From NCBI RefSeq assembly GCF_003334335.1, contig NZ_QOWQ01000008.1: a DNA stretch of 64,000 bases; one strand, 5' to 3'. This document shows positions 24,679 through 25,857 of the stretch, piece by piece (position 1 is the first letter of the stretch; every line of letters starts with the position of its first letter). This DNA comes from Escherichia coli. GTDB taxonomy: Bacteria > Pseudomonadota > Gammaproteobacteria > Enterobacterales > Enterobacteriaceae. Position numbers and translations under genes: made by a program. The notes under the pieces were generated by a model that saw nothing but the letters and a program-made list of their open reading frames with translations, was not told where the DNA came from and did no database searches.

Positions 24679-25857
24679 ATGAGTAATATTGTTTACCTGA
24701 CAGTAACGGGAGAACAACAAGGAAGCATCTCCGCAGGTTGTGGGACTTCTGAGTCTACAGGTAATCGTTGGCAGAGCGGGCATGAGGATGAAATATTTAC
24801 ATTCTCACTCTTAAATAATATTAATAATACGGGGCTTGGTTCACAGTTCCATGGTATAACATTTTGTAAATTAATTGATAAAAGCACTCCATTATTTATT
24901 AATTTCATTAACAATAATGAACAATTATTTATGGGATTTGACTTCTATCGAATAAATAGATTTGGTAGATTGGAAAAGTATTATTATATACAACTAAGAG
25001 GCGCTTTTTTATCGGCTATTCATCACCAGATCATTGAAAACCAACTGGATACAGAAACAATAACTATTAGTTATGAATTTATCCTCTGTCAACATCTTAT
25101 CGCAAATACCGAGTTCAGCTATTTGGCACTCCCTGAAAATTATAACCGTTTGTTTTTACCAAATTCAAAAAACCAAACAAATAATCGTTTCAAAACGTTA
25201 AACAGCAAAGCTATTGGCAGGCTACTTGCTGCTGGTGGCGTATACAATGGGAACATTGAAGGATTCAGAGATACTGCGGAAAAACTGGGTGGAGATGCAA
25301 TAAAAGGCTATGATCAAATACTAAATGAAAAAACAGCGGGCATAGCGATAGCAACAGCATCTATTCTTTTAACAAAGCGTTCTAATGTTGATACATATAC
25401 AGAAATAAATAGTTACTTAGGCAAACTTAGAGGTCAACAAAAACTTCTTGATGGTATAGACATAATAGAAATAATATACATTAAGAGACCTTCAAAAGAC
25501 TTAGCTAACTTACGAAAGGAGTTTAATAAAACTGTAAGAAAAAATTTTCTTATCAAACTTGCAAAAACCTCCGAAGCATCTGGAAGATTCAACGCCGAAG
25601 ACCTTTTAAGAATGAGAAAGGGCAATGTTCCTCTAAATTATAATGTTCACCATAAACTATCTCTAGATGATGGTGGTACTAATGATTTCGAAAATTTAGT
25701 ATTAATCGAAAACGAACCATATCATAAAGTTTTTACTAACATGCAATCACGAATAGCTAAGGGAATATTAGTAGGTGAAAGCAAAATCACTCCCTGGGCC
25801 ATTCCATCTGGCTCAATTTATCCTCCCATGAAAAATATTATGGACCACACAAAATGA
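24679..25857 (+). CDS. yhhZ: Hcp-like protein with C-terminal HNH nuclease domain (Hcp-ET type polymorphic toxin)
   Basis: ORF track 392 aa; N-terminus MSNIVYLTVTGEQQGSISAG... is Hcp/TssD-like; C-terminus NVHHKLSLDDGGTNDFENLVLIENEPYHKVF fits an HNH HH...N...H signature; AT-rich. Confidence 0.85.
   Translation: MSNIVYLTVTGEQQGSISAGCGTSESTGNRWQSGHEDEIFTFSLLNNINNTGLGSQFHGITFCKLIDKSTPLFINFINNNEQLFMGFDFYRINRFGRLEKYYYIQLRGAFLSAIHHQIIENQLDTETITISYEFILCQHLIANTEFSYLALPENYNRLFLPNSKNQTNNRFKTLNSKAIGRLLAAGGVYNGNIEGFRDTAEKLGGDAIKGYDQILNEKTAGIAIATASILLTKRSNVDTYTEINSYLGKLRGQQKLLDGIDIIEIIYIKRPSKDLANLRKEFNKTVRKNFLIKLAKTSEASGRFNAEDLLRMRKGNVPLNYNVHHKLSLDDGGTNDFENLVLIENEPYHKVFTNMQSRIAKGILVGESKITPWAIPSGSIYPPMKNIMDHTK

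Follow-up and report, generated by a model that had tools for sequence, protein, structure and literature searches.

The yhhZ-yrhA locus of Escherichia coli: a probable orphan effector-immunity pair for type VI secretion, of the Hcp-ET1/ETI1 kind

Introduction

[quoted passage not shown] The question arises at yhhZ in the window (the whole 64-kb stretch of Escherichia coli DNA that was analysed), where an earlier note made from the sequence alone proposed a fusion of Hcp to a toxin.

The gene and its setting

The open reading frame at 24679-25857 (+) is E. coli yhhZ. Its 392 codons equal the length of the RefSeq coding sequence at the same locus in other E. coli, and the gene order (yhhY / yhhZ yrhA yrhD yrhB / ggt) is that of annotated E. 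coli genomes. G+C content is 29-37% across the 2.4 kb of the island, compared with ~50-55% in the flanks.

24450..26850, no strand: AT-rich island with yhhZ-yrhA-yrhD-yrhB, between yhhY and ggt (composition profile and gene order)
24679..25857, + strand: yhhZ coding sequence, 392 aa, Hcp-HNH fusion, predicted Hcp-ET1 orthologue (ATG-to-TGA open reading frame)
25854..26348, + strand: yrhA, 164 aa, intact, putative cognate immunity protein, ETI1 orthologue (ATGA overlap, NF038335, identity to the 55989 protein, Enterobacter homologue)
26443..26598, + strand: yrhD, small open reading frame in the island (156 nt, 'protein YrhD' in RefSeq genomes)
26798..27082, + strand: yrhB, 94 aa, orphan polymorphic-toxin immunity protein, Imm35 (Pfam PF15567)

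YrhB matches Imm35 (PF15567) over the full model (E = 4.6e-23). Within the island, neither a lysis gene nor a receptor-binding domain gave a signal. A scan of the island for promoters and terminators was uninformative, because it returned no more of them than shuffled sequence did. In a section of PMC3661553 on H-NS binding, yhhZ and yrhA of K-12 are placed among 'promoter islands'.

The gene neighbourhood was read by synteny from an annotated genome with 100% identity to the window over positions 24400-27100. In the part of that genome that is collinear with the 64-kb window, no T6SS core or structural genes are annotated. The linkage to T6SS genes looked for in the case of an Hcp/TssD protein is thus missing from this neighbourhood, and the remark that yhhZ 'sits alone' is correct because no T6SS core gene lies within the 64 kb. 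At least 80% of the 2.7-kb stretch is present in one place in 3758 of 5426 genomes, mostly at an identity of at least 95%; the locus is absent from ~23% of complete E. coli genomes.

The N-terminal half is an Hcp-type domain

24679..25119, + strand: Hcp/TssD tube-protein domain, aa 1-147 (TIGR03344, Pfam T6SS_HCP and solved Hcp proteins)

Residues 1-147 of YhhZ score 115.4 bits (E = 2.3e-33) against NCBIfam TIGR03344 (Hcp1/TssD), about twice the curated cut-off of 58.9, with the match spanning model positions 1-161 of 167. Pfam T6SS_HCP (PF05638) is also matched (E = 5.7e-11), as are solved Hcp proteins over aa 3-145, including 3he1 (Hcp3; 4.7e-11), 6a2v (1.6e-9) and 5mxn (7e-9). These matches support assignment of the N-terminal half as an Hcp carrier domain. 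The extents of the TIGR03344, Pfam and solved-Hcp matches put this part at ~147-150 residues; its identity was therefore read correctly, but its length (~160 residues) was somewhat overestimated. The full-length AlphaFold model has pLDDT <50 for aa 1-174, from an alignment that is shallow and mixes unrelated N-termini.

A predicted colicin-type nuclease domain

25405..25833, + strand: predicted colicin-type HNH (His-Me finger) nuclease domain, aa ~243-385
25642..25734, + strand: HNH core motif, N322-F352 (sequence, invariant residues in alignments A1 and A2, secondary structure of the model)

YhhZ contains the HNH block NVHHKLSLDDGGTNDFENLVLIENEPYHKVF. The block comprises 31 residues, N322-F352, and therefore spans nt 25642-25734; its presence was reported accurately and only its end, given as 25731, needs correction. 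In the predicted model the core has strands at 320-324 and 339-343 and a helix at 347-359, so that H324 and H325 end strand 1, N339 lies in strand 2 and H349 starts the helix. This is the arrangement of a beta-beta-alpha-metal fold, found here in the predicted structure of the C-terminal domain.

The single YhhZ sequence gives only a marginal Pfam match to PF01844 (E = 0.013, below the safe threshold) and E = 1.9 to Col-Pyo_DNase (PF21431). When a profile of the YhhZ family was searched against the PDB sequence set, it matched the DNase domain of colicin E7 with E = 2.6e-4; its matches to pyocin S2, AP41 and colicin E2 had E-values of 1e-3 to 4e-3. In alignments of 24 and 48 homologues (50-97% identity), H324, H325, D330, D331, G333, N335, N339 and H349 are invariant down to ~50% identity; the His general base, the Asn of strand 2 and the metal-binding His of the helix are thus all conserved in the family. 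Because these residues are invariant and the family profile reaches the colicin and pyocin DNases, the HNH motif is not a chance match as judged from sequence.

The second helix His of the colicin-type metal site is absent: T353 stands in its place in YhhZ, four residues after H349, and the position is Thr or Ser throughout the family. In colicin E7 this last metal-binding His is H573. Fold, profile similarity and invariant catalytic residues together support the predicted assignment of the C-terminus to the HNH/beta-beta-alpha-Me nucleases, with the HH...GG...N...H pattern first read from the sequence. A passage of Blondel et al. calls the HNH of YhhZ 'degenerate' (PMC2907695).

A toxin module that occurs behind different heads

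25120..25194, + strand: variable linker that joins the Hcp domain to the mobile toxin module, aa 148-172 (alignment A1)
25195..25383, + strand: conserved helical segment, first part of the toxin module, aa 173-235 (invariant columns and predicted helices)

The toxin had been taken to be the C-terminal ~120 aa. The nuclease does lie there, but the module is larger, as a very highly conserved helical segment (aa 173-235) precedes it and is part of the same mobile unit. In alignment A1, conservation across proteins with different N-terminal carriers starts at L173-N174-S175-K176, and the segment has the consensus LNSKAxGRLLAAGGVYNGN...GYDQxLNExTxG.... Invariant columns (N175, G180, L182-G187, Y189, N190, N192, F196, L203, G204, G210, Y211, N216, T219 and G221) are common to Hcp-headed, DUF8093-headed and other-headed homologues. 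The segment matched no Pfam family, and is modelled as four helices, of which the last is hydrophobic and has low confidence.

The heads that precede the module from aa 173 onward are Hcp, DUF8093 (PF26362) and, in Pantoea, a third one that carries no annotation; one C-terminal toxin module is thus found on different N-terminal trafficking domains, as in polymorphic toxins. We considered DUF8093 as a divergent Hcp and rejected this at the sequence level, since hhalign of the Hcp heads against the DUF8093 heads detected no relationship (probability 0.2%). A homologue search with the DUF8093 head alone returned 9 matches, mostly fragments. The DUF8093-headed toxin-immunity pairs form two-gene cassettes, with no T6SS gene nearby.

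A tentative extension of these observations, which we think rather doubtful, is that the mobile unit is a fixed three-part cassette (the ~60-residue helical segment, the HNH domain and yrhA) carried behind at least three unrelated heads of ~145-170 residues. The segment would act autonomously in entry or loading (in passage across the inner membrane of the target, for instance, or in docking to the secretion apparatus), and DUF8093 would be an undescribed delivery domain that replaces Hcp. If true, the same toxin would have a second route, other than the tube.

yrhA as the immunity gene

The ATG of yrhA overlaps the TGA of yhhZ by 4 bp (ATGA). YrhA belongs to its own NCBIfam family (NF038335, YrhA family; E = 1.7e-35), and a homologue with 58% identity is encoded directly downstream of a DUF8093-headed toxin in Enterobacter. 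YrhA had no match in Pfam even at E <= 10, and a sequence search of the PDB returned noise only. The label 'SMI1/KNR4 family' for YrhA comes from one source, as a database name only. As in polymorphic toxin systems, the putative immunity gene is co-inherited with the toxin module, and yrhB (Imm35) is an extra orphan immunity gene nearby. The overlap with the toxin stop codon and the homologue that accompanies this module outside Escherichia bear out the suggestion that the downstream frame is an immunity partner.

Identity with the published Hcp-ET1/ETI1 pair

YhhZ of the window is identical at 390 of 392 residues to the protein of the same locus in E. coli 55989 and O104:H4 C227-11 (WP_000065896.1, one accession common to both strains), and YrhA at 162 of 164 residues to the 55989 protein. 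The C227-11 locus tags are AAF13_RS24950 and RS24945. The tag cited for Hcp-ET1 in PMC6730261 is AAF13_24945, which in RefSeq numbering is yrhA, one gene off the Hcp gene; the correspondence thus maps the two-gene locus, not gene for gene. Given near-identical sequence, the same locus (yhhY/.../ggt) and a cognate immunity gene immediately downstream, yhhZ-yrhA is, at the level of sequence and gene order, orthologous to the published Hcp-ET1/ETI1 pair.

That pair was studied in E. coli STEC004, O104:H4 C227-11 and 55989 (Ma et al. 2017, Virulence 8:1189, via the reviews PMC6730261, PMC6099711, PMC9990079 and bioRxiv 10.1101/2024.03.05.583533). According to the same reviews, Hcp-ET1 inhibits competitors via a predicted HNH DNase, with T6SS2 as its delivery system and ETI1 as the protein that neutralises it. 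A passage of Blondel et al. 2009 (PMC2907695) calls YhhZ an 'evolved Hcp' that has an HNH domain, and Jablonska et al. 2017 (PMC5714182) list it in His-Me finger group 32.

The first reading of an Hcp-HNH fusion at yhhZ is thus right and already known: both halves of the proposed architecture are supported, and it is the published 'Hcp-ET' architecture. The finding is correct and ordinary because a near-identical Hcp-ET1 has already been tested experimentally. An Hcp domain, an HNH DNase and a downstream immunity gene away from a T6SS cluster have been described for yhhZ since 2009, and carry little weight as a discovery. The case serves as a positive control: from raw sequence, the reading correctly identified an effector of the specialised-Hcp type and saw that it is an orphan.

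Proposed mechanism and alternatives

We conclude, with a probability of roughly 0.85, that yhhZ and yrhA form an orphan pair of the Hcp-ET1/ETI1 kind, which encodes a type VI secretion effector and its immunity protein. Via its Hcp domain, YhhZ would be built into the inner tube of a T6SS, possibly in mixed rings with ordinary Hcp, as has been suggested in print. Sheath contraction would then fire the tube, with the C-terminal module covalently attached, into a neighbouring bacterium, where the nuclease would reach the cytoplasm and, as a colicin-type HNH enzyme, would degrade the DNA. Carriers of the translationally coupled yrhA would be protected because, we propose, YrhA binds or blocks the nuclease. 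Genes for the secretion machine would lie at another place in the genome; in the strains that Ma et al. 2017 tested, this machine is T6SS2. Where a strain has no T6SS, as is the case for K-12, the AT-rich island with its association to H-NS is probably a silent passenger. Within this scheme the present analysis established the domain identities, predicted nuclease fold, conservation of catalytic residues, toxin-immunity linkage, orphan position and orthology to Hcp-ET1; DNase-dependent growth inhibition, dependence on T6SS2 and neutralisation by ETI1 are taken second-hand from reviews of the literature.

The locus could instead be a decaying relic, that is, a silenced remnant of horizontal acquisition that is no longer a weapon, has perhaps a weakened nuclease and persists only because it is unexpressed. 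The AT-rich composition and the K-12 genes' inclusion among H-NS-associated promoter islands (PMC3661553) fit such a relic, as do the ~23% of complete E. coli genomes without the locus, the K-12 and B strains without a T6SS (stated in the review PMC6730261) and the 'degenerate' label given to the HNH in PMC2907695. Insertions point the same way: IS1 is present in yhhZ as well as in yrhA of strain WEM25, and K-12 TG1 tolerates an IS1-truncated yrhA beside an intact yhhZ, so that the toxin is either not expressed or harmless inside that cell. However, both genes are intact and translationally coupled in the window, the catalytic residues are invariant across genera, and the stretch is kept at high identity in the 3758 of 5426 genomes noted above. 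A protein that differs at 2 of 392 residues is, moreover, reported to be active and delivered by T6SS2 (PMC6730261, bioRxiv 10.1101/2024.03.05.583533). We consider decay unlikely.

Two functional alternatives fare less well. If the Hcp-like domain did not serve tube assembly, YhhZ could act independently of a T6SS, for example as a released genotoxin like a bacteriocin or Usp. The retention of the gene in K-12, which has no T6SS, and the occurrence of the same toxin-immunity pair behind the non-Hcp DUF8093 head with no T6SS gene nearby are compatible with this. We nevertheless find it very improbable, given the reviews' account of T6SS2 delivery of the orthologue (PMC6730261, bioRxiv 10.1101/2024.03.05.583533, PMC6099711), an N-terminal domain whose score, about double the curated cut-off, is that of a genuine TssD, and an island that gives no lysis-gene or receptor-binding-domain signal. 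The tight coupling of an HNH nuclease gene to that of an inhibitor, within an AT-rich island and beside another immunity-type gene, might also recall a toxin-antitoxin-like defence island, in which an anti-phage or abortive-infection nuclease is held in check by YrhA. PADLOC defence models gave 0 matches to YhhZ, YrhA, YrhD and YrhB, and for this reason the defence reading was dropped; the N-terminal domain is a secretion-tube protein and YrhB belongs to a polymorphic-toxin immunity family, both of which also argue against a role in defence that we regard as scarcely credible.

Comparison with known systems

The proposed T6SS effector-immunity pair at yhhZ-yrhA resembles Hcp-ET1/ETI1 in locus, domain order, orphan position and downstream immunity gene. 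The differences are F76S and A300T in the toxin and two substitutions in the immunity protein. With respect to K-12 YhhZ (NP_417899), the TG1 accession, WP_000065894.1, is that of the strain with DNA 100% identical to window positions 24400-27100. The TG1 locus differs in that yrhA is truncated by IS1 beside an intact yhhZ, whereas yrhA of the window is intact (164 aa).

Likeness to the DNases of colicins E7, E9 and E2 and pyocins S2 and AP41 consists of profile similarity that covers the helical lead-in together with the HH...GG...N part, with the shared pattern LRkeF..FRkkF...HH.p...GG....N. These proteins also have the beta-beta-alpha-Me fold (predicted for YhhZ), and are DNases of bacterial warfare with a dedicated immunity protein. 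Unlike the colicins, YhhZ lacks ~11 residues just before the HH dyad (an alignment gap); in colicins this stretch is part of the immunity-binding exosite. YhhZ further differs from colicins and pyocins in having Thr at the equivalent of the last metal-binding His, a partner of the YrhA type rather than the Im7/Im9 type, and a predicted delivery by the Hcp head instead of receptor-binding and translocation domains.

Among T6SS effectors with HNH toxins, Rhs2-CT of Serratia marcescens, RhsB of Dickeya and VgrG-HNH of S. arizonae are carried by Rhs/PAAR or VgrG proteins of the spike, whereas the carrier in YhhZ is Hcp, the tube protein. Sequence identity of YhhZ to Rhs2-CT and the other T6SS HNH effectors is only ~20%. 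Usp (uropathogenic-specific protein) and Hcp-ET3/ET4 share with YhhZ an Hcp-like N-terminal domain joined to a bacteriocin domain of nuclease type and followed by immunity genes. They differ from it in the toxin (pyocin S3-type or colicin-DNase PF12639), in having several immunity genes and in occupying another locus.

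Chromosomal setting of yhhZ

The genes are ordered gntK, gntR, yhhW, yhhX, yhhY / yhhZ, yrhA, yrhD, yrhB / ggt, yhhA, ugpQ, ugpC, an arrangement that places the region on the Escherichia coli chromosome. We identified the following features:

24450-26850 (approximate): AT-rich island yhhZ-yrhA-yrhD-yrhB, G+C 29-37% versus ~50-55% in both flanks (composition profile)
24679-25857, + strand: yhhZ, one 392-codon ORF running from ATG to TGA
25195-25383, + strand: Gly/Ala-rich helical segment of ~60 residues (YhhZ aa 173-235), the first part of the shared toxin module
25642-25734, + strand: HNH core block (YhhZ N322-F352)
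25854-26348, + strand: yrhA, 164 aa, NCBIfam NF038335 'YrhA family'; its ATG overlaps the yhhZ TGA (ATGA)
26443-26598, + strand: yrhD, conserved island ORF of 51 codons
26798-27082, + strand: yrhB, polymorphic-toxin immunity protein of the Imm35 family (PF15567, full length, E=4.6e-23)
61230-64000, + strand, running off the window end: rhsB, an Rhs polymorphic toxin gene, open frame starting MSGKPAARQGDMTQYGG

Low G+C relative to the flanks typically marks DNA that was acquired horizontally. Of 5426 complete E. coli genomes, 4182 carry the 2.7-kb stretch containing the yhhZ ORF, on the chromosome every time, and in 3758 of these carriers at least 80% of it lies in one place. The earlier note described yhhZ as sitting alone, and the orphan position is supported: the only related element in the window is rhsB, which annotated genomes place after nikR. 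Lying ~35 kb from yhhZ, this gene is a second orphan encoding a polymorphic toxin of the T6SS type. The cognate toxin gene for YrhB is absent from the island, and yrhB is probably an orphan immunity gene, a remnant of, or guard against, another toxin cassette. YrhD is annotated only as 'protein YrhD', and no family match was found for it in NCBIfam or PADLOC.

Domains of YhhZ

Residues 1-147 match NCBIfam TIGR03344 (TssD/Hcp1; E=2.3e-33, 115.4 bits, curated cut-off 58.9), and the protein matches Pfam T6SS_HCP (5.7e-11). Residues 3-145 also match solved Hcp proteins (Hcp3 3he1, E=4.7e-11; 6a2v, 1.6e-9; 5mxn, 7e-9). In a full-length AlphaFold model the N-terminal half has pLDDT below 50, which we attribute to a shallow alignment mixing unrelated N-termini. 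A predicted Hcp fold for this half is thus supported by homology rather than by independent structure prediction, and the proposed N-terminal Hcp/TssD assignment stands, with TIGR03344 above its curated cut-off.

The HNH core block quoted in the earlier note is present in the sequence. [quoted passage not shown] Alignments of 24 and 48 homologues, drawn from several enterobacterial genera and as little as ~50% identical in the toxin module, show H324, H325, D330, D331, G333, N335, N339, L340 and H349 to be invariant. The family profile matches the DNase domains of colicin E7 (E=2.6e-4), pyocin S2 (1e-3), pyocin AP41 (1.5e-3) and colicin E2 (4e-3), over both a helical lead-in (LRkeF..FRkkF) and the HH...GG...N core. 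An AlphaFold model of aa 173-392 (mean pLDDT 81.9, pTM 0.72; pLDDT >90 over most of aa ~270-380) has H324/H325 ending strand 320-324, N339 starting strand 339-343 and H349 starting helix 347-359, a predicted beta-beta-alpha-metal arrangement. The invariant catalytic residues, profile match and modelled fold bear out the HNH claim and support a predicted colicin-type HNH nuclease.

A mobile toxin module and its immunity gene

Searching with the C-terminal 239 residues of YhhZ recovered homologues of similar length in three architectures: an Hcp head (E. coli, Citrobacter and others), a DUF8093 (PF26362) head (Enterobacter, Leclercia, Pantoea, Erwinia, Serratia), and a third head without an annotated domain (Pantoea). 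Across all three, similarity sets in abruptly at L173 (LNSKAxGRLLAAGGVYNGN...). The toxin module extends beyond the nuclease and is mobile. Head-swapping is a hallmark of polymorphic toxins, and the same module behind different heads fits it. Across the three head types, conservation is higher in the aa 173-235 segment than in the nuclease. The segment has no Pfam family match; AlphaFold predicts four helices for it, of which the final one is hydrophobic and low in confidence. Candidate roles are loading, membrane entry or inhibitor contact.

The DUF8093 head (~170 aa) is unrelated to Hcp, with no relationship detectable by hhalign (probability 0.2%), and is followed by the helical segment, HNH domain and a YrhA-like immunity gene (comparison locus L005, 8001-9663; also L003 and L004). 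In Enterobacter the product of the second gene shares 58% identity with YrhA, and the two-gene cassette lies between housekeeping (sugar-metabolism) genes. The immunity gene thus goes with the toxin module rather than with the head, and yrhA is, by this sequence linkage, the predicted immunity partner of YhhZ. No T6SS genes occur within 8 kb of the cassette in Enterobacter roggenkampii CP056148.1. An integrase-like gene adjoins it in one metagenomic contig (L003). Further searching on DUF8093 function yielded nothing useful.

Disruption and silencing in K-12

In K-12 TG1, yhhZ is intact and encodes WP_000065894.1, a protein also found in a strain that is 100% identical to window 24400-27100 at the DNA level. 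The adjacent TG1 yrhA is truncated by IS1, and in strain WEM25 IS1 has inserted separately into yhhZ and into yrhA (comparison loci for these disruptions: L010, 1755-2897, and L011, 580-3804); both genes are intact in the window. The island resembles a hot spot for IS1 insertion, and yhhZ is tolerated in K-12 without a full immunity gene. K-12 is described as lacking T6SS genes in PMC6730261, and a section of PMC3661553 on H-NS complex formation counts its yhhZ and yrhA among 'promoter islands'. A simple promoter scan of 24450-26850 found no excess of sigma-70-like sites (14, versus 12.5 +/- 3.2 in shuffled sequence). Transcriptional silence of the island in K-12 is the simplest reading. This picture supports a relic in some lineages and does not contradict an effector function.

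Proposed mechanism and comparison with known systems

We consider it probable (roughly 0.85) that YhhZ is a specialised-Hcp effector. Its Hcp domain would be incorporated into the T6SS tube, the tube would be expelled into an adjacent cell, whose DNA the attached HNH nuclease would degrade, and YrhA would protect kin. Domain identities, nuclease fold, conserved catalytic residues, toxin-immunity linkage, orphan position and orthology are supported here. For activity, T6SS2 dependence and immunity we rely on the literature; ring incorporation, the nuclease's route into the target cytoplasm and silencing in T6SS-less hosts are what we infer. Overall, the observation in the earlier note is confirmed, and its reading of YhhZ as a tube-delivered DNase effector is supported.

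Relative to colicin DNases, YhhZ lacks ~11 residues directly before the HH dyad, a stretch that in colicins belongs to the immunity-binding exosite. The YhhZ family has Thr/Ser at the position equivalent, in colicin numbering, to the last metal-binding histidine.

The Hcp-HNH finding is already known from literature and genome annotation; only the functions of the aa 173-235 segment and the DUF8093 head are, loosely, novel threads. Group 32 of the His-Me finger superfamily has YhhZ as its type member, and YhhZ was judged to be a nuclease (Jablonska et al., 2017, PMC5714182). 'Hcp-ET' effectors were defined by Ma et al. (2017), as cited in PMC6730261, PMC6099711, PMC9990079 and bioRxiv 10.1101/2024.03.05.583533. 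According to these four secondary sources, Hcp-ET1 (STEC004, O104:H4 C227-11, 55989) inhibits competitors via a predicted HNH DNase, is delivered by T6SS2, not T6SS1, is neutralised by the downstream ETI1, and is encoded by an orphan gene outside T6SS clusters. The locus tag quoted for it, AAF13_24945 (PMC6730261), falls in the two-gene yhhZ-yrhA locus (RefSeq tags AAF13_RS24945, yrhA, and RS24950, Hcp-HNH), a one-gene offset that maps Hcp-ET1 to the locus rather than proving it gene for gene; this locus holds no other Hcp gene. Between yhhY and yrhA, 55989 and C227-11 encode one identical protein, WP_000065896.1, which shares 390/392 residues with the window YhhZ, and the 55989 yrhA product shares 162/164 with the window YrhA. 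These comparisons support the window yhhZ as an orthologue of Hcp-ET1.
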